A stretch of DNA of 64,000 nucleotides. Source: a bacterium (GTDB taxonomy: Bacteria; UBA10199; 2-02-FULL-44-16; JAAZCA01). Positions within the stretch are counted from its first letter, which is position 1. Each line of letters opens with the position of its first letter. The position numbers and the translations under genes are program-made. This document shows, piece by piece, positions 11,085-26,998 of the stretch. The notes beneath the pieces are model-generated. The model ran no database searches and had not been told where the DNA came from. It worked only from the letters and a program-made list of their open reading frames with translations. Location: assembly GCA_963674695.2 (NCBI GenBank), contig CAXXGI010000002.1, positions 320,001 through 384,000 on the forward strand. The letters run 5' to 3'.

Positions 11085-11133
11085 AAAGGGAGGAGAATTG
11101 TCTGTGTCAGATGTTTCCGTTTGTGCGTTCTCA
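11055..11133 (-). ncRNA. Candidate sRNA (~80 nt) with an anti-SD tract
   Basis: Lies between a sigma28-like promoter (11140-11166) and a strong terminator; contains UUCUCCUCCCUUU; no credible ORF. Confidence 0.5.
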
Positions 11134-11139
11134 TAACTG

Positions 11140-11166
11140 TTATCGGCGAAGGGATGTGTAAAGTTG
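11140..11166 (-). promoter_or_regulatory. Sigma28 (FliA)-like promoter
   Basis: CAAC-N15-GCCGATAA; the -10 box matches the sigma28 consensus exactly. Confidence 0.65.
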
Positions 11167-11276
11167 CGTTTTTAATACAAAAACCGTTTACAAAAGAGAA
11201 CAGCCGATCCCCCCTTTTCATGTTCGGGTTGGTGCATATAATGAGGAACGTCATTCGATCGGAACGGGGGGAATTC

Positions 11277-12335
11277 ATGCAATGTATTCGGTACAGAGGA
11301 CGATGGCTCTTCGCTATGGCGTTGATCGCGATAACCCTCTTTGCAGCGGTTTCGCTCGAAGCGGCTGAGCTTAGTGATGCCGCTCCATTTCAGGTGACCT
11401 CTGCGATGCGCGGGCGGCCGGATCCGGAAGGGACGCCCACGCCGGTCAAGATCGGTGTCTATATCCTGGACGTCTACGATATCGATGATGTAGAGCAGAC
11501 CTTCACCGCAGAGTTCGCCTATCGCCTGCAGTGGCGCGATGAACGCCTGGCGGCGGGGCTCGCTGAAGGCGAGACGCGGCGCTTCGGGATGGAGGAGGTC
11601 TGGCGCCCAAACGTCCTCGTCTTCAACGGGCGCGGGCTCGAGTCACAGGTGGAACGCTTCATCGAGGTCGATGCACAGGGAAACGTCAGTCTCTGGCAGC
11701 GCGATTATGGTGATCTCGCCTTTCGTTTGAACCTGCGCGATTTTCCATTCGATACCCATCATCTTCCCATCATCTTCGTCTCCGGTCGCTATGGCCCGGA
11801 AGCGGTTCGCTTCGAGGTCGATCGGCGCTTCACCGGCGAGTCGGAAGAGCTCGCCATCGCCGATTGGATGATTCGAGCCGCCGAGCCGAGGCTGGATGGA
11901 TATCACTTCGCTCCCCAGGGGCGCGATCTGTCGATGGCGGTCTTTCGCATCGAGGCGACGCGTCGCGTGGGTTTCTTCGTCTGGCGCGTCATCGCTCCGC
12001 TCATGCTCATCGTCTTCATGTCCTGGATGGTCTTCTGGATCGATCCAAATCACCTGGAGGCCCAGGTGGGGGTTTCAGCCACATCGGTGCTCACGCTCGT
12101 CGCCTTTCAGTTTGCCTTGGGCGTGTTGCTCCCGCGCATCGCGTATCTGACGCGCATCGACATCTTCATTCTCATCACATCGTTGTTGGTTTTTCTAGCG
12201 CTCGTGGAGGGAGTCGTTACCAGCGGGTTGGCCGGGAAGGGGCGCCATGAAACGGCGCTTCGCATCGACTGGTGGTCGCGACGACTCTTCCCGACGGTCT
12301 ATGTTGTCGCCTCGGCGCTGACGTTTCTGCTCTGA
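11277..12335 (+). CDS. Prokaryotic pentameric ligand-gated ion channel (GLIC/ELIC family)
   Basis: Signal peptide; WRDERL, WRPNV, FPFD Pro-loop, M1 PLMLIVFMSWMVFWI, M2-M3 LPRIAYLT; four TM helices. Confidence 0.9.
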   Translation: MQCIRYRGRWLFAMALIAITLFAAVSLEAAELSDAAPFQVTSAMRGRPDPEGTPTPVKIGVYILDVYDIDDVEQTFTAEFAYRLQWRDERLAAGLAEGETRRFGMEEVWRPNVLVFNGRGLESQVERFIEVDAQGNVSLWQRDYGDLAFRLNLRDFPFDTHHLPIIFVSGRYGPEAVRFEVDRRFTGESEELAIADWMIRAAEPRLDGYHFAPQGRDLSMAVFRIEATRRVGFFVWRVIAPLMLIVFMSWMVFWIDPNHLEAQVGVSATSVLTLVAFQFALGVLLPRIAYLTRIDIFILITSLLVFLALVEGVVTSGLAGKGRHETALRIDWWSRRLFPTVYVVASALTFLL

Positions 12336-12350
12336 GGGTTCGAACGGTTT

Positions 12351-13490
12351 TTATCGATGCACGTGGGAATAGGCGCGCACGATTTCCAACACGCGCCCGA
12401 GCGGCAGGGCATTGGCGCGATTGCCCGAGTGCCCCTCCATCGTCTCGGCCATGCACAGCGCATTCATGATGGCCTCTTCGGTTGCCTCGATCGTGGCGCG
12501 ATAGAGCGGGTCGATGGCTGTATCGAGCAGCACCTTCATCTTATAGCGCATCTTCTTCGACTGCCTCGGGACCGTGTTGGCGGTGGAGAATCCCACCATG
12601 ATCTCGCCCGAATCGTTTGCCGCGATCGATCCGCAGCGCCCGACACCGAGGGCCGCGCGTTTGCACAGCCGCGCGATCTGGTGCGACATGAGCGGCGCAT
12701 TGGTGGCGACCACGACGATGATGCTGCCGTAGTTGTGTTCGCGCCGGGGCTCGGTGCGCATCTCCTCCATGAGTATCTCGCCCAAGGGAATGCCGTCCAG
12801 GCGCAGGTCCGCCATCGTGCCGAAGTTGCTCATGACCAGCACGCCGACCACATAGCCGCCCTCCGCCGGTGGCAGGCGCCGTGAGGAGGTGCCGATGCCG
12901 CCCTTGAAGTCGCAGCTGACCATGCCCGTTCCGCCGCCGACGTTCCCTTCTGCAACCGGACCACTGCTGGCATTTGCGATCGCCTCGAGGACGTGTTCTT
13001 CGCGAACGTGTCCGCCGCCGATGTCGTTGAGCCAGGAATCGTCGCATTCGCCCACGACCGGGATGATGACATCATGAATCGTGCCGATGCCGGGGTAGCG
13101 GTCGACCATATACCTGACCACCGCGTCCGAACAGGTGCCGACCGAGAGGGTGTTGGTGAGCAGGATCGGCGTCTCGATGAGCCCCCACTCCACCACCTGC
13201 GTGAGCCCCGAGACCTCGCCCGCGCCGTTGAGGATGAAGCCGCTGCCGACGACGCGTTCGTGAAAGATGTCGCCGCCCACCGGCAGGATCGCGGTCACCC
13301 CGGTGCGCGCGGGGCCCTTGCCCGATCGGAGCTTGCCCTCCCCCTCCCCGTGAACGACCGTTGCGTGTCCGACCATGACGCCCGGCACATCGGTGATCGC
13401 ATTGAAGCGGCCGGTGGGATAGCGTCCAATTTTGACACCCAGCCCGCGCAGCCGCACGCGTTTGCCTTCGCGGATCTTTTTGTCGACCAT
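12351..13490 (-). CDS. dmpA: DmpA/BapA-family (S58/P1) aminopeptidase
   Basis: NAITDVPGVMVGH, VVGECDDSWLND, EGNVGGGTGM, KGGIGTSSR and the G|SIIVVVAT autoprocessing site. Confidence 0.88.
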   Translation of the reverse strand: MVDKKIREGKRVRLRGLGVKIGRYPTGRFNAITDVPGVMVGHATVVHGEGEGKLRSGKGPARTGVTAILPVGGDIFHERVVGSGFILNGAGEVSGLTQVVEWGLIETPILLTNTLSVGTCSDAVVRYMVDRYPGIGTIHDVIIPVVGECDDSWLNDIGGGHVREEHVLEAIANASSGPVAEGNVGGGTGMVSCDFKGGIGTSSRRLPPAEGGYVVGVLVMSNFGTMADLRLDGIPLGEILMEEMRTEPRREHNYGSIIVVVATNAPLMSHQIARLCKRAALGVGRCGSIAANDSGEIMVGFSTANTVPRQSKKMRYKMKVLLDTAIDPLYRATIEATEEAIMNALCMAETMEGHSGNRANALPLGRVLEIVRAYSHVHR

Positions 13491-13492
13491 CG

Positions 13493-15550
13493 CTACCCCC
13501 TACGTCCCAAGAGCTGTTCCCGTCGGCGCTCGCGCATGCGGCGCAGCGCCGGCGCCATGATCTCGCCGACGAGGGCGCGAAAACCGATGCCCACCGCCTC
13601 GGCGATGACACAGAAATCAGAAAACCCGGGCGTGAGCCCCGGGAGCGGATTGCACTCGACGAAGTGGACGTGACCTTTTTCATCCAGGCGCAGGTCGATG
13701 CGCGCAAAGTCGCGGCAGCCCAGGACCGTGAACGCCGACTTGGCCACGCGCTCCAACTCGCGCTTGAGCGGTGGTTCGACGTTCGCCGGCACCTCGAATC
13801 GCACCTTGTCGACGTTGAAGAATTTACTCTCGAACGTATAGAGCAGATACTTCGGGCTGCGGTCGAGGAAGATCACCTCCATCGGCGGCAGCGCGCGCGG
13901 ACGGCGCTCGCCCAAAAGCGCCACGGTGAATTCGCGGCCCGGGAGAAAGTGCTCCACGATCAGGGCCTGGTGGTAGCGCCCGACGATCTCCTGCACCAGT
14001 TCGCGCAGCCCTTTCTCGTCTTCGGCCACGCTCGTGCGCAACACACCTTTGGAACTGCCCTCGGCCACGGGTTTTGCGATGACCGGAAATTCGAACCCCT
14101 TGGGCAGGCGTTCGCGTCCGGTGGTCATGAGGAGAAACGGCGGCGTGCGCAGACCCGCCTGCGCGATGAGGCGTTTGGCCAACCCCTTGTCGTGTGAGAG
14201 CGAGAGGGTGGCTGGATCCGAGCCCGTGTAGGGGATTCCCAGCAGTTCGAGGAGCGCGGGCACCTGCGACTCGCGCGTGCGCCCTTCGATCCCCTCGGCG
14301 ACGTTGAAGGCGACGTCGATTCCCGATGCCGGCAAGATCGACGGGAGCTCGCGCGTCGCCTCCAGCCGCACCACGTTATGGCCGTAGGAGGCGATCGCCT
14401 CCTCGATGGCGGCGACCGTGTCGGGCGAGTCGAACTCGGCCTCGTCATCGCCCGTGGCTTCGTCGAGACGGTTTTCCATGCGGCGCAGATTGTAGATGAG
14501 TCCCACCTGGATGGGGGCACGTGCGAAGCTGCGCCGCGAGCTCTTGAGCGTGATGCCGAAACGATCGGCGGCGCTCGAGATGATCGCCTGTAGGACCTTC
14601 TCGATCGAGCCCAGACCCACGAGCGCAGCCGATTCGTAGATGGACGCGCCCGGCTCGAGGCTCGGCAGGGCGTTGACCTCGATGAAGTGCAATTCGCCGG
14701 CGGCATCGAGACGGAAGTCGACGCGTCCGGCGTCGCGCACGCCGAGAGCGGCGATCACGCGACGCGTGAGGTCGAAGGCGCGGTCGCGAATGCTCGCGTC
14801 GATCTGGGCCGGCACGCGCACGGAGACCGCGTCGAAGTGCGTGGCCTTGAGGTCGTAGTCGTAGATCTGATAGCGGCGCGGTCCGGTGATGGCCTCGTCG
14901 AAGCAATACTGCGCCGGTTCGAGTACGCCCCCGCGCTTGGGTGCGGCCTTTTCCAGGAACGGGACGGTGATGTCCTGCCCCACGATGAACTCCTCGACGA
15001 GCACGCCCGTGGGAAAGCGCTGCAGCAGCGACTCGACCAGAGGGGCGAGCTCCAGCGCGTTCTCCACGATGGAGTCCTGCGTGATCCCCATCGAACTCCC
15101 CTCGAAGTTCGGTTTGACGATCACGGGAAAACGCAGCGTGGAGGCGGCCAGCAGCTCGATCTGTTCGCGCCGTTCGACGAAGACCGAATGTGGTGTGGGC
15201 ACGCCTCGGGCTGCCAAGACCATCTTGGTCAGCTGCTTGTCGAGCGTGAGGGCGCAGACATAGGCGTCCGACATGGTAAACGGCAGGCCCAGCCGGTCGA
15301 AGAGCGCCGGATAGAAGGCCTCGCGAAAACGTCCGCGGCTGCCCTCGGCGGTGTTGAAGACCAGATCCGGCGCGAGCGCCTCCAGGCGCGCGACGATGCG
15401 CGAGGCGGGTCCGGCCACATCGATGGGTTCCACCTCGTGACCGAGGGCGCGCAGCGCCTCGGTGATGGCGGCGACGGTCTCGGGCCGATCGAACTCGGCC
15501 TCGTCCTCGCTCGTGGACAGCTGCAGGTTGTGCGTGAAGGCGATCTTCAT
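13493..15550 (-). CDS. Tandem (two-domain) D-Ala-D-Ala ligase-like ATP-grasp protein
   Basis: Two copies of EAEFDxPxTV..VFNxAEG..KPxxEGSSxG..EE/HFxxGxxxTV..RxDxRLD..ExNxLPxL. Confidence 0.88.
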   Translation of the reverse strand: MKIAFTHNLQLSTSEDEAEFDRPETVAAITEALRALGHEVEPIDVAGPASRIVARLEALAPDLVFNTAEGSRGRFREAFYPALFDRLGLPFTMSDAYVCALTLDKQLTKMVLAARGVPTPHSVFVERREQIELLAASTLRFPVIVKPNFEGSSMGITQDSIVENALELAPLVESLLQRFPTGVLVEEFIVGQDITVPFLEKAAPKRGGVLEPAQYCFDEAITGPRRYQIYDYDLKATHFDAVSVRVPAQIDASIRDRAFDLTRRVIAALGVRDAGRVDFRLDAAGELHFIEVNALPSLEPGASIYESAALVGLGSIEKVLQAIISSAADRFGITLKSSRRSFARAPIQVGLIYNLRRMENRLDEATGDDEAEFDSPDTVAAIEEAIASYGHNVVRLEATRELPSILPASGIDVAFNVAEGIEGRTRESQVPALLELLGIPYTGSDPATLSLSHDKGLAKRLIAQAGLRTPPFLLMTTGRERLPKGFEFPVIAKPVAEGSSKGVLRTSVAEDEKGLRELVQEIVGRYHQALIVEHFLPGREFTVALLGERRPRALPPMEVIFLDRSPKYLLYTFESKFFNVDKVRFEVPANVEPPLKRELERVAKSAFTVLGCRDFARIDLRLDEKGHVHFVECNPLPGLTPGFSDFCVIAEAVGIGFRALVGEIMAPALRRMRERRREQLLGRRG

Positions 15551-17588: not shown

Positions 17589-17863
17589 GAACGTTTCCTT
17601 TCGAGACCCTTTCCCTGGTATGTTTTTACCCTCTTCCGCCAAAAAAGAGACATGATCGCTCACGGCATTTCGCATACTTAGCGTAAGATGCACTTTTGCC
17701 ACCTCTTGCGTCGTCTGTCGCTCGCGCATCTAACCTCTCGTTCGAACAGGGTATATTGCTCTGGGGATCGCCGACCCCGGCTCTGACGTGTTCTGGAATA
17801 CAACTTGCTTCTTTCATCTCCGACGATGGGAGCTGGTTGGATCCACAACCGAAGGGGGGTTCT

Positions 17864-19876
<2,013 letters not shown>

Positions 19877-20239: not shown

Positions 20240-21925
20240 ATGTCAAAGATTGCCGTCGTGATCAATGGTGACACCCACAGGAAGAGCGTCGAGAAGCATC
20301 AGAAGAATGCCGATCGGGCGTTGAAGGTCCTCGAGGGAATGGGATACGAGACCTTCGTCGCCAATCCCAAAAAACCGAATGCAGACTTCGATCATTACTA
20401 TCACGCCGATGTGGATGGCGTTGATGACCTGATCGACGACCTGAAGCAGAAGCTCGATGCCGATGATGAACTCTGCATCTATGTGACCGGACATGGGAAC
20501 AAGTCGGGGTTCTGTCTCGGCGACGATTGCCGCACGAGCGATCTCATCGCACGCTTCGATGCGCTGCCGTTTGCCAAGCGCACCGTCGTCATGGATCAGT
20601 GCAAGGGAGGCAATTGGCTGAACCGCTTCGTGGACGATCCGCGCACACTCTTCATCTCCAACGGCAGTTCCGACGAGATCGTCTGCTGCGGCGAGTTCGC
20701 GCCCGTCTTCTGGGGAGAATGGATAACGGACCGGAACCACGACGGGGTCATCAGCTTCGGCGAGCGATACGCTCAGGTCCTGGAGCACGGCGTCAAACAT
20801 TCGTTCCCGCTCAAAAATCTGAGCGCAGGGTATGTCGACGACGGAACGAGACCATTTGAACAGAAGGTCGTCACGGTCGATACGCCAGCAGAAATGGATG
20901 CGCAGCTCGAGCGATTGATGCCCGGACAGCTGGCCATCGTCATGTTTTCGATGAAGGGGTGCCCGCACTGTGATCGTTTGCAACCGAAGTTTGAGAAACT
21001 CGTCAAACAAGCCAAGGGCCAGTACCTGATTCTCTATACGAAGAATATCGAAATGGCGATGGAGCGATACGGCGTCACCGGCTTTCCGCAGGTCTCTGCG
21101 CTGGACCATAAGGGGGGTGCGCTCCAGTTGCGTCAGTACGACGACATGCTCGGGGAGCTCGCGCGGGCGGTCATGCCACGCGAGGAAAGAATCGCTCTCT
21201 TGCGCGCGCGGATCGACAGTGAAGCGGGCAGCGATGTGTATGTTGCGCTCTGCAAGCGCCTGTCACAGGAGCAGTTGGCGACTGAGGCGAAAACGCTTCG
21301 CACGCTCTCGCTTTCCGACCCGAAGATGGAAGAAGGAGGAGAATTTATTTGGAGCGCGTATGTAAAGGTTGTGTCGATGCTCGAAGAACCATGTCGATCG
21401 GCCGAGATGAAGCGTGGAGCGGTGATGCAGAAGAGCTTCGATCCCGTTCATAAGCGTATGGCCGAGAGCTTGAGAGGGGCTATCAACAAACGAAAGCGCG
21501 AGGAGAAGCGGGGGCATCCGAAGCGAGTGACGGGAATGGCGCGGGCGGTCCGAACCTATTTTCGCAAGATCGATACCGTCGATCGATCGCGGTACATCGT
21601 CGATGAGTCCGACATTCCCCTCCAAACGGTCGTCGATGGGGAGACCGTTCTGGTCGATGTTTCGATGAAACTGGAGGTGCTGCGGTTCCTCTGTAAAGAT
21701 TCTGACGCGAACATTCGGCGGTGGGCTGCCCTCGTCTATGGAAACCTGGCACAGAAAACCGATGATAAGAAAGAGCGCCGGAGGGGGCGCATCCTGATGC
21801 GACGCCTGATCAAAGGTGATGATGACGAGGGCGTTCGAGCGAAGGCCAAGCAGGCGCTGAAAAAGATCATGCCGGAAAAGCTGATTGCAGATGCGGTGCC
21901 GGATTCCGCTTCCGTACAGAAATAG
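20240..21925 (+). CDS. Caspase/legumain-like (clan CD) peptidase domain + thioredoxin domain + HEAT-like repeats
   Basis: IYVTGHG...VVMDQC His-Cys dyad; DRNHDGVISFGE; CPHC and GFP; C-terminal DSDANIRRWAA and DDDEGVRAKA repeats. Confidence 0.7.
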   Translation: MSKIAVVINGDTHRKSVEKHQKNADRALKVLEGMGYETFVANPKKPNADFDHYYHADVDGVDDLIDDLKQKLDADDELCIYVTGHGNKSGFCLGDDCRTSDLIARFDALPFAKRTVVMDQCKGGNWLNRFVDDPRTLFISNGSSDEIVCCGEFAPVFWGEWITDRNHDGVISFGERYAQVLEHGVKHSFPLKNLSAGYVDDGTRPFEQKVVTVDTPAEMDAQLERLMPGQLAIVMFSMKGCPHCDRLQPKFEKLVKQAKGQYLILYTKNIEMAMERYGVTGFPQVSALDHKGGALQLRQYDDMLGELARAVMPREERIALLRARIDSEAGSDVYVALCKRLSQEQLATEAKTLRTLSLSDPKMEEGGEFIWSAYVKVVSMLEEPCRSAEMKRGAVMQKSFDPVHKRMAESLRGAINKRKREEKRGHPKRVTGMARAVRTYFRKIDTVDRSRYIVDESDIPLQTVVDGETVLVDVSMKLEVLRFLCKDSDANIRRWAALVYGNLAQKTDDKKERRRGRILMRRLIKGDDDEGVRAKAKQALKKIMPEKLIADAVPDSASVQK

Positions 21926-21951: not shown

Positions 21952-24180
21952 TCAGATGACCTGCCCAACCACGGCGTCGACGGCGAGCCATTCCTGGATC
22001 AGGCGTCCGATGATGCGGTCGCGCGCGCGGGCGGGGGTGACGAAGGCAAACGCCTGCTTCAAGAAATCGTATGCGGCCGGATCGCCCTGCTCGGCCAGAC
22101 GCCGAACGGCCTGGCGCACGGCGGTCGCCGAGATCCCCTCCTGCTGCATCGGCATCGGCATCAATCGCAGTCGATCGGCGTATCGCTTGACCTGCGCGTC
22201 ATAGCGCCCCTCGTCCATCTCCTTCTGTCCCACGATCAGCGCAACCGCACCCTTGCGATTGTCTTTTGCAGCGCGGTTGAGGAACCGCCAGAACGCACTC
22301 GTGTCGATGACGTGCGCGTGCACCCCCTCGGGTAGCCCCTGCTGCAGAATCTCCGTGCGAAGCGCGGGCGAGAAGACGTGCGTATAATCGCCCGCCTGTA
22401 CGTCCTTCTTTCGCGCGGCCACTCCCCACCCCTTCCACGTCTCGGCCGTAAGGTCGGGCGCTTTGTCGGAGGCGAGCACAAAGAGTTCGGAGGGGGACCA
22501 TTCCTGCATCGCCGCACCGATGAGTGCGATGTGTCCGGCGTGCGGCGGCTGCATCTTTCCGATGAAGAAGGCCGCGCCCGCCCGCCAGCGATCGAGCGGC
22601 GGTGGTAATTTTGTTGCCGGTGCGAATTTCTTCGGTGCCTGTTTCGTGCTCGTTGCGCGACGCACGCGTTTCTCCTGCGTGCGCATCTGCTCGCCTGCGA
22701 AGTTGTGCATCGTGAACTCGAGCCGGTCGACGAGCTTGACCTTTACGCCGCTGGTTTCATCGGTGACCATGATCCCCTCGATGGGACCGCCGCCAAGCTT
22801 TGAGGTATAGGCCCCCCGCATGTGGGGCTTGAGCTGAAAGAGGATGCGGTTCGCGTCATAATAGGCCGCGAGTGCAGCGCGTAGATCGTCGCCGCTGTCC
22901 GCAACGAGCGCGTCGAAGTCTGCCGGCATCCGTCGCGGCGCCATCCATCGCTTGGCGCCCGATGGCGAGATGCGCAGCGTGTTTGCGCGCTCGGTAATCC
23001 ACGTGCGAAATACGGCGCAGATCCGATCGAAGTCGAACGGTTCATTCGCGGCGGCTGCCTGATAGAGCCCGCCGTTGTGCCCGGCCTTGAGGCTCGTGTT
23101 GAGAAAGATGCGGAAGGTCGGCAGGAAGCTTGCCCACTGTTTGCGGAAATCGGCGCTCATCCCCGCGAGCCCCGCGCGCATTCCCGACAGGGCTGCGCGG
23201 ATCTCCGTCTCCTGTGCATCGGTGAATCGGTTTTTTCCTCGATCGATTCTCACATCCCGCGTCCACGGATCGACGGCGAAGACGCCGTCGGAGCGCAGCG
23301 TTCGGACGAATGCCTCCACCGCATCCGCGTCGTCGAGCGGTTCGACGCGTGCAACCGTTCCCGTCTCCTCATCGATCACGCGGCGGCCGACAGTGTGTAC
23401 GACCAACCCCAGCTGCACGTTCGAAACGAAGGGATGCAGCTTTGAGTGCTTCGTGATGCGATAGGCAAGACCGGATGGATTGGCGCGAATGATCACCGCA
23501 TCGTTTTCAACAGTGCGTGCACCATTGTTGGGTGTGAAGAGTAGGTCGGCCTGAAAGACGAGCGACGGGTCGGAAAACGCCTTCAGGCGCGGGCGCAGGA
23601 CGCGAATGCAATCGGCCAGGATCGCCGCGATCGGTGAGTTCCCATAAAGCTGTGCGGCTTCCGCGACGGTGCGCACGAGCTTGGGCGCGCCCTTGCGTTC
23701 GATGCCGAGCTTGTAGGCGACATAGGGGCGGTTGTCCGCGTCGAATCCCAGGACGATGGCGGGCGAACCGTCGATCTTTTCGTTGAGTTCTGAGATGGAT
23801 CCCGCCCGGATCCAGCCGATGAATTGGTCGATGAAGCGCTCATACAGGTCGAGGCCGGGAAACGCGTCCTCCGCGGCCCCCGGAGCGACATCGAGGACGA
23901 GGTCGGCCAGGTGTTCGCCGTGTTTGAGGATGCCGGTACGCAAACCTGCGAGCTTCGGCCCCGAGCCGCTGCCATCGCCATCGTTTCCGCCGCCGCTTCC
24001 ATTCGGGGGGGGGATGGACGCCGGCGGTGATGAAGGGGTGTCGCTCCCAACCATCGCGAAGGTGTCGATCGGTTCGAGTGATGCGTCCTCGAACAATGTC
24101 GAATCGACAAACGGATCCAAAGCGGCCGTCATAAACGGCGTTCCCACATTCCCGATGATGGTGGATCCCGCAGCGGACAT
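21952..24180 (-). CDS. Phage-like KxDG ligase/nucleotidyltransferase (DUF6267-like) fused to an HxGH cytidyltransferase-like domain
   Basis: HGEHLAD, EKIDGSPA, FQADLLFT, GLVVHT, EGIMV, VKLVDRLEF..NF; then GKMQPPHAGH and ISATAVR. Confidence 0.7.
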   Translation of the reverse strand: MSAAGSTIIGNVGTPFMTAALDPFVDSTLFEDASLEPIDTFAMVGSDTPSSPPASIPPPNGSGGGNDGDGSGSGPKLAGLRTGILKHGEHLADLVLDVAPGAAEDAFPGLDLYERFIDQFIGWIRAGSISELNEKIDGSPAIVLGFDADNRPYVAYKLGIERKGAPKLVRTVAEAAQLYGNSPIAAILADCIRVLRPRLKAFSDPSLVFQADLLFTPNNGARTVENDAVIIRANPSGLAYRITKHSKLHPFVSNVQLGLVVHTVGRRVIDEETGTVARVEPLDDADAVEAFVRTLRSDGVFAVDPWTRDVRIDRGKNRFTDAQETEIRAALSGMRAGLAGMSADFRKQWASFLPTFRIFLNTSLKAGHNGGLYQAAAANEPFDFDRICAVFRTWITERANTLRISPSGAKRWMAPRRMPADFDALVADSGDDLRAALAAYYDANRILFQLKPHMRGAYTSKLGGGPIEGIMVTDETSGVKVKLVDRLEFTMHNFAGEQMRTQEKRVRRATSTKQAPKKFAPATKLPPPLDRWRAGAAFFIGKMQPPHAGHIALIGAAMQEWSPSELFVLASDKAPDLTAETWKGWGVAARKKDVQAGDYTHVFSPALRTEILQQGLPEGVHAHVIDTSAFWRFLNRAAKDNRKGAVALIVGQKEMDEGRYDAQVKRYADRLRLMPMPMQQEGISATAVRQAVRRLAEQGDPAAYDFLKQAFAFVTPARARDRIIGRLIQEWLAVDAVVGQVI

Positions 24181-24196
24181 CGATGATACCTCGTGT

Positions 24197-25018
24197 TTAT
24201 CTCAAACGATAGACCGAATGGTTGTCGGGCGTGATGCCCAGGTGCGACCAGAAACGATGGCCATAATCGAAGCGCAATTCTTCGCCGGCTTCGATCGCTC
24301 GTCGGGCGAAGAAGAGGGTGTGAAATCCTCCCTCGCAGAAGACGTGGGCGAATTGCATGTTTGCCGCGAAAAGAGTGCTGGAGTCAATGCGCACGGAATC
24401 ATCGATGTGATTGGCAAAGCGCATCGCGCTTCCGGCGCGTTCGCCATCGATGGCGAAAGGGCTGTGGGAAACGCGGGGAGCATTTTTGAGCAGGGCGTTC
24501 CACGGGTGGAGCTCCATCGCGTAGACGTTCCGACCGGAGAGCATCGTCTGACTCACGATATAGCCGGTATATTCGCCGATCCAATCGCCCTGCTCGAATG
24601 GCTGCAGGGCGAAGAGGCCGAATCCCTGTTCCAATCCGATGCGGGCGATTCCCAAATTCGGCGATGTGTGATTCTCGGATGCCGGCAGGCGTTCCCAGTT
24701 GGCACGAACGAAGAGATCTTTTTCTGATCCCGGCGGGAGATTGTGGTGACGTGATGCGTGTTGGTGAACAGTGCGATAAGCCTGTGCCTCCCGGGCAAGC
24801 GCTGCTTTGATCGTGCGATTCTTCGGTTTTGATTTTGGCAGATAGTGGAGATCCTGGCTTCGGTAAAAAGCGGCCATGCCATCGGGATCTGCTGTCGTGG
24901 CGACGATGGGTGAATATTCATCGATGGCGTCGAATGTCGGCGACGAATCCGCCGTTTGGACGAACGTATCCGCAGCGAGAGGGGTGAGTGCAACGATATG
25001 TGCCGGTGGCAAGATCAT
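24197..25018 (-). CDS. SET-domain lysine methyltransferase
   Basis: GFGLFA..GDWIGEYTG, RFANH, GEELRFDYG. Confidence 0.88.
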   Translation of the reverse strand: MILPPAHIVALTPLAADTFVQTADSSPTFDAIDEYSPIVATTADPDGMAAFYRSQDLHYLPKSKPKNRTIKAALAREAQAYRTVHQHASRHHNLPPGSEKDLFVRANWERLPASENHTSPNLGIARIGLEQGFGLFALQPFEQGDWIGEYTGYIVSQTMLSGRNVYAMELHPWNALLKNAPRVSHSPFAIDGERAGSAMRFANHIDDSVRIDSSTLFAANMQFAHVFCEGGFHTLFFARRAIEAGEELRFDYGHRFWSHLGITPDNHSVYRLR

Positions 25019-25036
25019 GAGTCCTCGTTTGCATCC

Positions 25037-25062
25037 TTATCGGTGAATGCCCTCAAAAGTTT
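25037..25062 (-). promoter_or_regulatory. Sigma28-like promoter
   Basis: AAAC-N14-ACCGATAA upstream of the SET gene. Confidence 0.55.
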
Positions 25063-25258: not shown

Positions 25259-26998
25259 GTGACCACTGAAACGGATGCCAAGGGACGGATCATTCGCCGG
25301 GGGCCCTACCCCGAACTCACTCTGCCGGGGATGCTCGTCGGCTATTTCCTCGGAGCGCTGCTCACCGTGGCGGTCGGATACGCCAGCCTCGTCCTGGGAT
25401 ACGGCACCTGCGGGTCGATTTTGGCCGCGATCCTGGGGTTTGGGATCCTGCGCGGAATCTTTCGGCGCTCGAGCATCGTCGAGAACAACATCAACCAGAC
25501 GGTCGCCAGCGGCGTGAACAATGCCTCCACGGGGTTCGTTTTCACCTTCCCGGCGATCTTCCTGCTCAACCAACCCGAGATCAACCCGTGGCTTGTGATC
25601 CTGGCGGCGATTTCCGGCGGCATCCTGGGCATTGCCTTCATCATTCCGCTGCGCAAGCAGATGATCGATTTTAACCGTCTCCCCTTTCCGGATGGGATTG
25701 CGGTGGCCACGATCCTCAAATCGCCGGGCGCGGGCGTGCGCAAGGCGATCCTCATGACTGCGGGCGCGGTCATCAGTGCGATCGCCGCGCTGCTCACCCA
25801 CTTCACCGGGTTTGAGAACTTCGCCCTGGGCGAGGCGATCGGTGCGCCCGCTTACATGAACATCGTCTACTACATCTCGATCATGACCATCGGCGTGGCC
25901 TACATCGCCGGAAAGGGCGGGCTCTTCTTCGTCGTCGGTGGCTATCTCTGCTATTGGATCCTCGCGCCGATCCTCTCGAATATGGGCGTGCTGCCCACGC
26001 CGGAGGCGCTCGCCGCGATGGATGTGGATCTGTTGCAGTATCTGCGCTTCTCGCTCTTCCGTCCGCTGGGCATCGGCATGCTCATCGGGGGTGCGCTCAT
26101 CGGAATTGTGCTGGCCGTGCCGCTGATTCGCAGCGCCATCGGCAGCATGCAGTCGGCATCGAAATTGAAAAAAGCATTCTCGCGCGATGAGATGCCGATC
26201 AAGGTCCTCTATTTCGCCATCGCGGCCGGCTGTGTGGTCCTCTTCGTCGTGGCCTGGATGTCGACCACGCAGATGGGCGTCGGTCGCGGCATCGCCATCG
26301 CGGTGCTCGGCATCCTCTGGCTCTGGATGGCCGGGGTGATCATCTCCGAATGCGTCGGGTATACGAACTGGTCGCCGATGAGCGGCATGACGCTCGTGGC
26401 GGTGACGATTCTCATTCTCATCTCCTCGGGGCTGGGCGATACCGCAGCGATCGCTGCATCGATCGTGGTGGGGGTGGCCATCTGCATCGCCATGGGAATT
26501 GCCTCCGATATGATGCAGGACTTGAAGACCGGATATCTGGTCGGCTCATCCCCGTTCAAACAGCAGACCGCGCAGTTTCTCTCCGTCTGGCTCGGGCCCA
26601 TCATTATACTCTTCGTCATCATCGTCCTGAACGAGGCGTACGGCATCGGCTCCGACAAACTCCCGGCGCCGCAGGCAAGCGCCTTGGCGGGCATGATCAA
26701 GGGCGTGCTCGGCGGGAACGTCCCTGTGCAGAAGTATATCGCGGGCGCCACGCTCGGCGGTCTGCTCTCGCTCACGGGGCTGAGCTCGCTCGGTGTGCTC
26801 GTGGGCCTGGGGTTCTACATGCCCTTCAATATCGTGCTGACCTATACGGTCGGCGTCGTGTTGCGCCTCGTCATCGATAAGGTGCGCGGCCCGCACTTCA
26901 GCGCTGAGGTCGGCATCCCGATCGCAGCCGGGCTCATCATCGGCGAGGCGCTCATCGGTGTGGGCATAGCGCTCGTCGCCGTCGTCGGTGCGGCGTAG
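25259..26998 (+). CDS. OPT/YSL-family oligopeptide transporter
   Basis: ENNINQTVAS, IPLRKQMI..LPFPDG, DMMQDLKTGYL, LPAPQA. Confidence 0.9.
   Translation: MTTETDAKGRIIRRGPYPELTLPGMLVGYFLGALLTVAVGYASLVLGYGTCGSILAAILGFGILRGIFRRSSIVENNINQTVASGVNNASTGFVFTFPAIFLLNQPEINPWLVILAAISGGILGIAFIIPLRKQMIDFNRLPFPDGIAVATILKSPGAGVRKAILMTAGAVISAIAALLTHFTGFENFALGEAIGAPAYMNIVYYISIMTIGVAYIAGKGGLFFVVGGYLCYWILAPILSNMGVLPTPEALAAMDVDLLQYLRFSLFRPLGIGMLIGGALIGIVLAVPLIRSAIGSMQSASKLKKAFSRDEMPIKVLYFAIAAGCVVLFVVAWMSTTQMGVGRGIAIAVLGILWLWMAGVIISECVGYTNWSPMSGMTLVAVTILILISSGLGDTAAIAASIVVGVAICIAMGIASDMMQDLKTGYLVGSSPFKQQTAQFLSVWLGPIIILFVIIVLNEAYGIGSDKLPAPQASALAGMIKGVLGGNVPVQKYIAGATLGGLLSLTGLSSLGVLVGLGFYMPFNIVLTYTVGVVLRLVIDKVRGPHFSAEVGIPIAAGLIIGEALIGVGIALVAVVGAA

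Follow-up and report, generated by a model that had tools for sequence, protein, structure and literature searches.

What would a protein assembled from phage-like enzyme modules be doing in the genome of a cellular bacterium? The question is raised by a gene for 742 amino acids (aa) on the minus strand of the stretch of DNA analysed here, 64,000 nucleotides (positions 320,001 to 384,000) of contig CAXXGI010000002.1 from a bacterium of the UBA10199 lineage (assembly GCA_963674695.2), which we call the window. An earlier reading of the bare sequence (the original prediction) had described the product as a domesticated myovirus-type module, in which a ligase-like DUF6267 part and a nucleotidyltransferase were fused into one effector-like protein. 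Sequence comparisons and structure models point to a two-enzyme protein, predicted to be catalytically intact, from a bacterial branch that is sister to the “DUF6267 + cytidyltransferase” module of phages. The fusion itself is already common in phages; what is new here is the cellular sister clade with its export signals, and the context of a SET gene and of type III components.

A ligase-like module joined to an NMNAT-like module

The fusion protein begins with a tail of low complexity, followed by the DUF6267 module (N-module) and, after a linker, by an NMNAT-like domain (C-module). Its open reading frame (ORF) is not a chance match, given its Pfam score, its full-length homologues (n = 20, 32–58% identity) and its motif residues, which show no variation or a conservation of at least 90% in the two alignments that we used, one of 21 sequences (the fusion family) and one of 85 (fused plus standalone DUF6267 proteins). 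All the motifs that had been listed originally were found in the ORF and in the stated order, among them GLVVHT at aa 258–263, EG at 468–469 and VKLVDRLEFTMHNF at 481–494. The leader of about 80 aa was real as well, and corresponds to an unstructured Gly/Ser/Pro-rich tail with a predicted local distance difference test (pLDDT) below 50 at residues 1–76 and 78–82. The start codon, an ATG at 24180, is supported by the GAGGT Shine-Dalgarno sequence upstream of it and by the similar starts of the homologues P0002 and P0003. The GC content of the gene (63.3%, vs. 58.8% for the window) is unremarkable.

The original prediction had proposed DUF6267, and the assignment was confirmed with the Pfam family (PF19782), which scores 67.3 bits over residues 86–265 (cutoff 27, E 2.1e-18). 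This match covers profile positions 2–163 of 376 only, and the remainder of the N-module is tied to standalone DUF6267 proteins by phmmer (query residues 82–500). The AlphaFold model of the whole protein, made with 21 homologues, is confident from residue 83 (mean pLDDT 83.7, predicted template modelling score 0.77), and residues 83–520 refolded alone with the 85-sequence alignment reached 93.7 and 0.91. When the whole model was used in a VIA search, T4 Rnl2 (2hvq; 180 residues aligned, root-mean-square deviation 4.0) and REL1 (1xdn; 195 aligned) both scored Z 8.0, and further matches to residues 83–492 were Trl1, NgrRnl, archaeal RNA ligases, T4 Rnl1 and T4 DNA ligase. Ligases made up 13 of the 50 rows of this search, and all the rows spanning residues 78–513. 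With the N-domain only, rows 1–19 were all polynucleotide ligases (Z 5.4–7.6), e.g., Rnl2 1s68 (Z 7.6, 177 aligned), REL1 (7.4), NgrRnl (7.1) and Trl1 (6.7), and ligases accounted for 24 of the 29 rows with a Z of at least 5, the vaccinia capping enzyme standing at 4.3. The first 14 rows of a Foldseek search with the N-domain model were also all ligases, with weak E values. Rows for hemolysin E and a gap-junction protein in the phmmer search of PDB sequences were discarded (E >0.07, located in the tail or the first helix). Altogether, the VIA and Foldseek matches support the proposed ligase-type covalent nucleotidyltransferase fold.

The pattern of conservation can be read along the same lines. 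Three residues (K135, Y240, and G469) are invariant in the 85 fused and standalone DUF6267 proteins and a further set (H87, H90, D93, D137, G138, K157, Q210, D212, N234, H262, E468, K482, D485, and R486) is at least 90% conserved among them, while E468, K482, and R486 are invariant in the 21-sequence family alignment. Motif I of the superfamily, KxDG, is present as E134-K135-I-D137-G138, and K135 is predicted from it to be the AMP-accepting lysine. A conserved EG (E468-G469), read as motif IV, and a conserved lysine (K482), read as that of motif V, lie further on, and FQADLLF, with D212, is by its order and conservation a plausible candidate for motif III; no motif IIIa was assigned. The H87/H90/D93 element possibly binds a metal or a nucleotide. 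The insert at residues 321–458 (ca. 140 aa) is mostly helical and matches generic helical bundles only.

What the N-module has in common with Rnl2 (1s68, 2hvq), REL1 (1xdn), NgrRnl (5cot), and Trl1 (6n0t, 9qw7, 9r3w) is the nucleotidyltransferase core, with Z values of 6.5–8.0 over 177–208 aligned residues, and the KxDG lysine, the EG of motif IV and the motif V lysine appear to come in the same order as in nick-sealing RNA ligases. However, identity to the RNA ligases is 12–16%, and the window protein differs from them by the helical insert before motif IV, by the extra conserved HxxHxxD near its start and by the NMNAT-like fusion. Unlike Rnl2 and REL1, it lacks the C-terminal domain of the family, which serves in nick recognition, so that the likeness is one of the core fold only; unlike Rnl5 (NgrRnl), it has no N-terminal domain similar to the oligonucleotide/oligosaccharide-binding (OB) fold and is structured from residue 83.

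The fold of the C-module was recovered at higher scores. In the VIA search with the whole model, residues 533–735 gave PPAT 4nah (Z 12.0, 150 residues aligned, root-mean-square deviation 3.0), NadM 2qjt (Z 12.0), and NMNAT 1f9a (Z 11.7), and TmcAL, which acts on tRNA, also matches this fold (Z 8.3–8.4). The Foldseek search of the PDB with the whole model matched the C-module only, with NaMNAT 1kaq in front (3.9e-4), then PPAT and NMNAT. When the C-module columns were included in a profile search, the top three matches were NMNATs, i.e., NadR 1lw7 (E 0.003), 9x6f (0.02), and MJ0541 1f9a (0.024), and the alignment to NadR runs through both signature motifs (HxGH and SxTxxR). Within these motifs H547, G549, H550, T686, and R689 do not vary among the 21 family sequences and S684 is at least 90% conserved. 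The homologues P0008 (by its precomputed annotation), P0141, P0127, and P0067 pass the cutoff of the Pfam family CTP_transf_like; PHROGs and NCBIfam provide weak hints of a cytidyl- or NMN-adenylyltransferase, the NCBIfam NMNAT models being far below their cutoff. The module thus resembles NadR, NadM, and the archaeal NMNATs (1lw7, 2qjt, 1f9a) as well as PPAT (4nah) in its Rossmann fold and in the GxxxPxHxGH and SxTxxR motifs. It differs from all of these in remaining below the Pfam and NCBIfam cutoffs, in being attached to a ligase-like protein and in not being the housekeeping candidate of its genome. An HxGH/SxTxxR adenylyltransferase of the NMNAT/PPAT type is the assignment that the modelled fold supports.

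Relatives in cyanophages and in bacteria

The joining of both modules in one protein had been taken as a distinguishing trait of this locus, a view that has to be abandoned. The best viral matches in BFVD are long two-domain proteins, for example the “cytidyltransferase-like domain-containing protein” of S-PM2 (591 aa, E 1.1e-22, 693 aligned columns), and S-PM2 gp138 is colinear with the window protein through the junction and into the HxGH loop (24% identity, 503 columns, E 2e-17). Among the clusters of the protein atlas there are all-viral ones, of 54–81 members and 627–679 aa, in which both Pfam families are found in 19–78% of the members. By tblastn, 71 phage records match, 70 of them named cyanophages and the other an unclassified marine virus. 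On the other hand, the statement that T4-like cyanophages carry DUF6267 beside a separate cytidyltransferase gene proved correct for P-TIM40. At the place where S-PM2 has gp138 (591 aa; L007 5986–7761), downstream of gp43, UvsX, gp41, and MazG, this phage has the adjacent genes gp182 and gp183 (L006 5986–8250), for a DUF6267 protein of 396 aa and a “cytitidyltransferase” of 357 aa. In three of ten longer DUF6267 proteins scanned, CTP_transf_like lies C-terminal to DUF6267, and P0148 shows weak HIGH-type matches N-terminal to it (Citrate_ly_lig, and Pantoate_ligase just under the cutoff); the fusion may therefore occur in both domain orders. Since the linkage of DUF6267 to an adenylyltransferase recurs in this way, we argue that the two enzymes work together.

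Both modules of the window protein are homologous to those of the phages (S-PM2 gp138; P-TIM40 gp182 and gp183), in the same order and with the same conserved residues. Unlike the phage proteins, it is encoded on a cellular contig, falls in a separate long-branched clade and carries a tail of 82 aa (in the sister subclade, a Sec signal instead). The cyanomyophage DUF6267 gene sits inside the replication module (gp43, UvsX, gp41, MazG ... gp61, NrdA), a setting that the window gene does not share. A different kind of viral protein, the 971-aa “SET domain-containing protein” A0A218ML49 of an uncultured virus in BFVD, aligns with the NMNAT-like module over 209 columns (E 4.9e-4), and a SET domain and such an adenylyltransferase may be fused in some viruses.

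No function for DUF6267, PF19782 or “cytitidyltransferase” was found in the literature searched by those names, nor did the literature search find a phage RNA ligase-NMNAT fusion. Two papers bear on the phage module, and DUF6267 is not mentioned in the available parts of either. One of them, a review of cyanomyophages, states that homologues of the T4 DNA ligase (g30) were not found in these phages, where distant ones might remain unidentified (PMC2984593), and the S-CREM2 paper describes the cyanophage cytidyltransferase as an NMNAT homologue often detected in virion proteomes (PMC10665884). The reported lack of a recognisable DNA ligase in cyanomyophages makes the DUF6267 family a candidate for that gap, and both papers agree with a ligase/NMNAT module that may travel with the virion.

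An exhaustive HMMER search returned 262 representatives at E ≤0.001. Of these, 42 reached E ≤1e-30, the majority being full-length fusions (ca. 620–870 aa) and the others shorter sequences that are probably truncated. For the ligase-like module, a tree was built from representatives of a 50% clustering, most of them without origin labels (73 rows, 417 columns, quick search, LG+G4, unrooted). A long branch with 100% support separates 44 bacterial-type fusions from 29 phage-type rows, with the two known phage proteins among the latter. In this unrooted tree the bacterial proteins form a long-branched sister group and are not nested within the phage sequences, so that “domesticated myovirus-type” claims more than the tree gives. 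A phage origin of the bacterial branch is plausible, the unrooted tree leaving the direction of transfer undecided. Among named genomes, the fusion is carried by two metagenome-assembled genomes (MAGs) of Bdellovibrionales, one of Oligoflexia and another that bears the label Elusimicrobia. The neighbours of the bacterial fusions are cellular in all four long loci and differ from one locus to another.

The fusion gene was found in none of 40 relatives of the host (12 of the same family, 9 of the same order, and 19 of the same class), and the host encodes elsewhere both an NAD-dependent ligase, LigA, and a NadD-like candidate, which at 91.8 bits stays below cutoff. For both reasons we consider it an accessory gene and not a housekeeping one. 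The original prediction had itself named two findings that would speak against it, a widespread characterised housekeeping enzyme and a lack of any similarity to ligase-fold or phage proteins. The first does not agree with the search of the 40 relatives, and the similarity is present both in the fold matches and in the alignment with S-PM2 gp138.

The N-terminal tail and signs of export

Secretion (Sec) signals were called with a hydropathy heuristic of our own followed by inspection (basic start, 12-residue hydropathy of about 1.9 or more, small-x-small site). By this heuristic, Sec-type signal peptides are present in 14 of the 44 members of the bacterial clade (P0015, P0017, P0025–P0031, P0033, P0037, P0041, P0047, and P0048). 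Thirteen of them belong to a single subclade of 15 rows with 98% support, and the fourteenth stands at the base of the bacterial clade, while no signal was called in the subclade of the window protein (20 rows). In the tail of the window protein the first charged residue does not come before position 22. A start motif, M-x-[TIVA]-[VILA]-[GK]-[SPT], is common to the window protein (24160–24180, minus strand), P0002–P0011 and P0022, and is followed in most close members of the subclade by a variable, disordered Pro/Ala/Ser/Gly-rich tail of ca. 18–110 aa.

The host genome (G000, scored 100% complete) offers another possible route. At C1:133312–143066 and C3:761045–762064 it has an SctV/FlhA-type FHIPEP gene with two flanking FHA/YscD-type genes and a TPR gene, and an SctU/FlhB-type gene; there are also three secretins (C3:62644, C3:96118, and C2:687556). 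No flagellin and no flagellar rod genes were found in this genome. With SctV-, SctU-, and SctD-like genes plus secretins, and without flagellin or rod genes, the host probably carries a dispersed non-flagellar type III secretion system. We lean slightly toward the fusion protein being exported and acting outside the cytoplasm of its producer. The label “effector-like” has thus gained indirect support, from the Sec signals of the sister subclade and from the type III apparatus, but the window protein has no Sec signal of its own.

Export signals on ATP-using nucleic-acid enzymes are rare, Lig E being the known case. Lig E of Gram-negative bacteria has been described as an accessory DNA ligase that uses ATP and is targeted to the periplasm, and a phage link has been proposed for some minimal ligases. 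The similarity to the family described here lies in an accessory enzyme of the ligase superfamily with an N-terminal export signal, which in our case is present in part of the family and missing from the window protein itself. In contrast to the window protein, Lig E, a minimal DNA ligase, has an OB domain and no NMNAT partner, and there is no detectable sequence relation between them.

The SET gene and the surrounding locus

As had been noted from the sequence, an intact SET-domain gene ends 16 nucleotides upstream of the fusion gene (Table 1), a spacing that suggests co-transcription of the two. SET-domain effectors are known from intracellular bacteria, such as NUE of chlamydiae and LegAS4/RomA of Legionella, and the window resembles these cases in having an intact SET protein encoded in a genome with type III components. 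However, the adjacency, to which meaning had been attached, is not conserved, and is found in none of the six other loci with fusion homologues, two of which have less than 1.3 kb of upstream flank. A tblastn search of the fetched loci with the SET, Trx/HEAT, OPT, and GH18 proteins of the window likewise detected nothing beside the six fused homologues. The SET gene was found in 1 of the 40 relatives, and its product had no match in the phage collection. Its nearest clusters in the atlas are bacterial SET proteins, mostly of Chlamydiota, which we regard as a lead only, and the NCBIfam AnkI/LegAS4 match is weak (E 0.0016, far below the cutoff).

The flagellar reading of the sigma28-like promoter that had been proposed ahead of the SET gene is doubtful, as it is a partial match made by eye, flagellin and rod genes are missing and the best FliA-like sigma factor is below cutoff. 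A scan for sigma70-type promoters gave nothing on the minus strand. The positions of all these features are collected in Table 1.

Table 1. Features of the fusion gene and of the adjoining SET gene (window coordinates)
Feature	Position	Strand	Basis or remark
Whole ORF, 742 aa	21952..24180	minus	Tail + DUF6267 ligase-like module + NMNAT-like module; stop codon 21952–21954
Disordered N-terminal tail, residues 1–82, Gly/Ser/Pro/Ala/Thr-rich	23935..24180	minus	pLDDT, composition
DUF6267 module, residues 83–512	22645..23934	minus	Pfam, phmmer, model, VIA and Foldseek
HGEHLAD, aa 87–93	23902..23922	minus	H87, H90, D93 at least 90% conserved in 85 sequences
Motif I EKIDG, aa 134–138 (EKIDGSPA 134–141)	23767..23781	minus	K135 invariant, 85/85
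FQADLLF, aa 209–215 (FQADLLFT 209–216)	23536..23556	minus	Q210 and D212 at least 90% conserved
Helical insert, residues 321–458, between strand core and motif IV	22807..23220	minus	Secondary structure
Motif IV EGIMVT, aa 468–473, and motif V KVKLVDR, aa 480–486	22723..22779	minus	Conservation
Basic Pro-rich linker, residues 513–532, variable across family	22585..22644	minus	Alignment, model
HxGH adenylyltransferase domain, residues 533–742, Rossmann-type, C-terminal helix	21955..22584	minus	VIA, Foldseek, profile
GKMQPPHAGH, aa 541–550, HxGH nucleotide-binding motif	22531..22560	minus	Conservation
ISATAVR, aa 683–689, SxTxxR motif	22114..22134	minus	Conservation; aligned with NadR motif
16-nt spacer with GAGGT between SET stop and fusion start	24181..24196	minus	Sequence
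SET-domain gene, 273 aa, RFANH and EELRFDY motifs intact, ca. 130 aa ahead of SET domain	24197..25018	minus	Pfam SET, E 1.4e-13
Partial sigma28-like match GAAA-N15-ACCGATAA, upstream of SET	~25030..25060	minus	By eye, weak

The ca. 20 kb around the fusion gene contain genes for LysE, a pentameric ligand-gated ion channel, an S58 peptidase, a double ATP-grasp ligase, a GH18 chitinase, OPT, an amino-acid permease, and ZnuABC. These are ordinary cellular genes. Phage or integrase genes were absent among the window neighbours, the only tRNA is 20 kb away, and the statement that the fusion lies outside any visible prophage stands. PADLOC assigned no defence families to the fusion, SET and Trx/HEAT proteins. 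The stretch is present in three DNA runs, all of one study, and no RNA run was listed.

Some of the neighbours deserve mention on their own. Convergent with the fusion gene, at 20240–21925 (plus strand), is a 561-aa protein with a thioredoxin domain at aa 216–286 and C-terminal HEAT repeats, in whose first 200 aa a His-Gly and a Cys-Lys-Gly-Gly recall by eye the His/Cys dyad of caspase- or legumain-like proteins. A glutaredoxin-domain protein downstream of the homologue in locus L009 was considered as evidence for a conserved thioredoxin-fold neighbour and rejected, as only the CxxC region matches the window protein. The GH18 chitinase (17696–19876, plus) has two CBM2 domains connected through long (Pro-Glu)n linkers, and the channel gene (11121–12335, plus) encodes a prokaryotic homologue of the pentameric (Cys-loop) ligand-gated channels, with Neur_chan_LBD and Neur_chan_memb. 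At 12351–15550 (minus) the gene of the S58 (DmpA-type) peptidase adjoins that of a 685-aa protein with two halves similar to ATP-grasp/D-Ala-D-Ala ligases, and the two may be a peptide-building and peptide-trimming pair. OPT is found at 25259–26998 (plus) and at five more places in the host genome, i.e., six matches, with similar counts in most relatives, and this abundance suggests a lifestyle of peptide scavenging. Synteny with genome G013 was dismissed as weak, only the OPT gene and the one following it being common to both.

What the two enzymes might do together

The reading that we prefer, with a probability of roughly 45%, is that of a unit for strand repair or joining, in which K135 becomes adenylylated, the ligase-like module seals and the NMNAT-type domain feeds the donor. 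With ATP or NAD+ as donor, AMP would be loaded onto Lys135 of the KxDG motif and passed to a 5'-phosphate end, which the ligase-like module would then seal to a 3'-OH. The likeliest substrates would be RNA or RNA-like nicks; the nearest folds are nick-sealing RNA ligases. The C-module would transfer AMP from ATP onto an acceptor that carries a phosphate, our best guess being the conversion of nicotinamide mononucleotide (NMN) to NAD+, and in doing so it could supply or regenerate the adenylate donor (for example, NMN + ATP <-> NAD+ + PPi).

Several observations weigh against such a unit, or against its export. The similarity of the N-module to ligases is modest, with no Z value reaching 8 when the N-domain was searched by itself. 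Nothing was matched at E ≤0.001 when the Foldseek comparison with RNA ligases and capping enzymes, suggested as a check of the original prediction, was carried out with the N-domain model, although ligases did come out on top. Neither phmmer nor the profile search of PDB sequences detected a ligase. It is for these modest fold scores and for the missing sequence or profile match that we call the N-module a very divergent ligase-type nucleotidyltransferase fold which, as modelled, is not in any named RNA ligase family. Its model contains no OB or other known nucleic-acid-binding domain, and a single motif V lysine (K482) is conserved where two are usual. For the C-module, the anticipated cytidyltransferase/NMNAT fold with HxGH and SxTxxR was borne out, but the expected Pfam match to CTP_transf_like is sub-threshold (15.6 vs. 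21 bits), so that the identity of this domain rests on fold and motifs, and its acceptor is indistinguishable from those of the PPAT and NaMNAT types, for which the Z values tie. The exchange of substrate between both domains is purely what we infer. As to delivery, the window protein reaches a 12-residue Kyte-Doolittle maximum of 1.03, has no basic n-region and hence no Sec signal, and the SET gene is missing from the six other fusion loci. A leader common to the fusion and SET proteins was looked for and rejected (the tails are not alignable, E 14), and a search of all other ORFs in the 3.03-Mb genome found nothing similar to either of them (best E 0.058).

How do the alternatives compare? 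It is possible, if doubtful, that the two domains are independent rescue activities delivered together, one resealing RNA after the attack of suicide or immune nucleases and the other rebuilding NAD+ after NADase immunity, the fusion serving only to put both behind one targeting signal, a capsid tag in phages and a Sec signal or some other tail in bacteria. Delivery seems to apply to the phage and the bacterial versions alike. The frequent presence of cyanophage cytidyltransferases in virion proteomes, as reported in PMC10665884, would agree with this, as would the Sec signals in 14 of 44 bacterial members and the full catalytic motifs kept in both domains; the possibly variable domain order suits co-delivery as well as channeling. 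However, adjacency or fusion that lasts in very distant members is commoner among enzymes with a substrate in common. PADLOC matched no defence or counter-defence profile (no families), and the vicinity of the gene revealed no immune nuclease or NADase. Less probable in our opinion is the idea, closest to the original prediction, that nucleotides are used for capping or end-adenylylation without any sealing, with an NMNAT-like domain that attaches AMP to an end bearing ribose-5'-phosphate, which chemically resembles NMN, or produces an NAD-type cap, and a KxDG domain that transfers the nucleotide to RNA or protein. KxDG enzymes do include capping enzymes, the model has no OB or other domain associated with sealing, the conserved motif V lysine is single, and NMNAT-type folds accept varied phosphorylated acceptors (cf. 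TmcAL, Z 8.3–8.4). Against it, the structural neighbours are ligases, the sole capping enzyme listed, that of vaccinia, has a Z of 4.3 vs. 7.6 for Rnl2, and motifs I, IV, and V, with the candidate motif III, appear to follow in ligase order.

An accessory repair enzyme of phage origin that never leaves the cytoplasm, with the tail as a linker or regulatory segment and the SET neighbour as a coincidence, seems to us about as improbable as capping. It would account well for the 20 rows of the window subclade without Sec signals, for a tail that resembles no other ORF of the genome, for the lack of SET linkage (0/6 other loci) and for the need of both enzymes for ATP, which is cytoplasmic. It would leave aside the sister subclade with signal peptides and the signal-bearing basal member, the conserved start of the tail among close relatives and the non-flagellar type III apparatus of the genome. 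By far the least credible, and largely refuted, are a decaying remnant of a phage gene and a housekeeping NAD or ligase enzyme. That the nearest annotated relatives are phage genes is what a remnant would predict, but the ORF is unbroken and has lost none of the conserved catalytic residues, the full architecture is kept in 44 representatives at 50% clustering, and the contexts are cellular in four of four long loci. As for housekeeping, the gene was found in none of the 40 relatives and LigA and the NadD-like candidate are encoded elsewhere.

The strand-joining unit that we favour could be extended into a bolder proposal, which we think unlikely although it would embrace phages and bacteria alike. 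The protein would be a “travelling” sealing machine with its own cofactor chemistry, delivered into a foreign compartment by the capsid in cyanophages and by the Sec or type III pathway in bacteria. The NMNAT-like domain would interconvert ATP, NMN, and NAD+ beside the active site of the ligase, and Lys135 could thus be recharged where the usual donor is scarce or under destruction. In the bacterium described here it would be injected with a SET partner and would target nucleic acids inside a host or prey cell, and in the cyanomyophages it could be the missing ligase of the replication module.

Implications

From its models and motifs, DUF6267 plus NMNAT is an uncharacterised family with an unusual architecture within the ligase superfamily. 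Many marine T4-like phages have DUF6267, and placing it in this superfamily opens the way to a biochemical test that is both specific and inexpensive. For a ligase/NMNAT protein the setting next to a SET gene is unusual, and such a protein, in a genome with type III components, would be a new kind of candidate effector, and if it is true that the two domains are chemically coupled, they would represent a new way to fuel a ligase.

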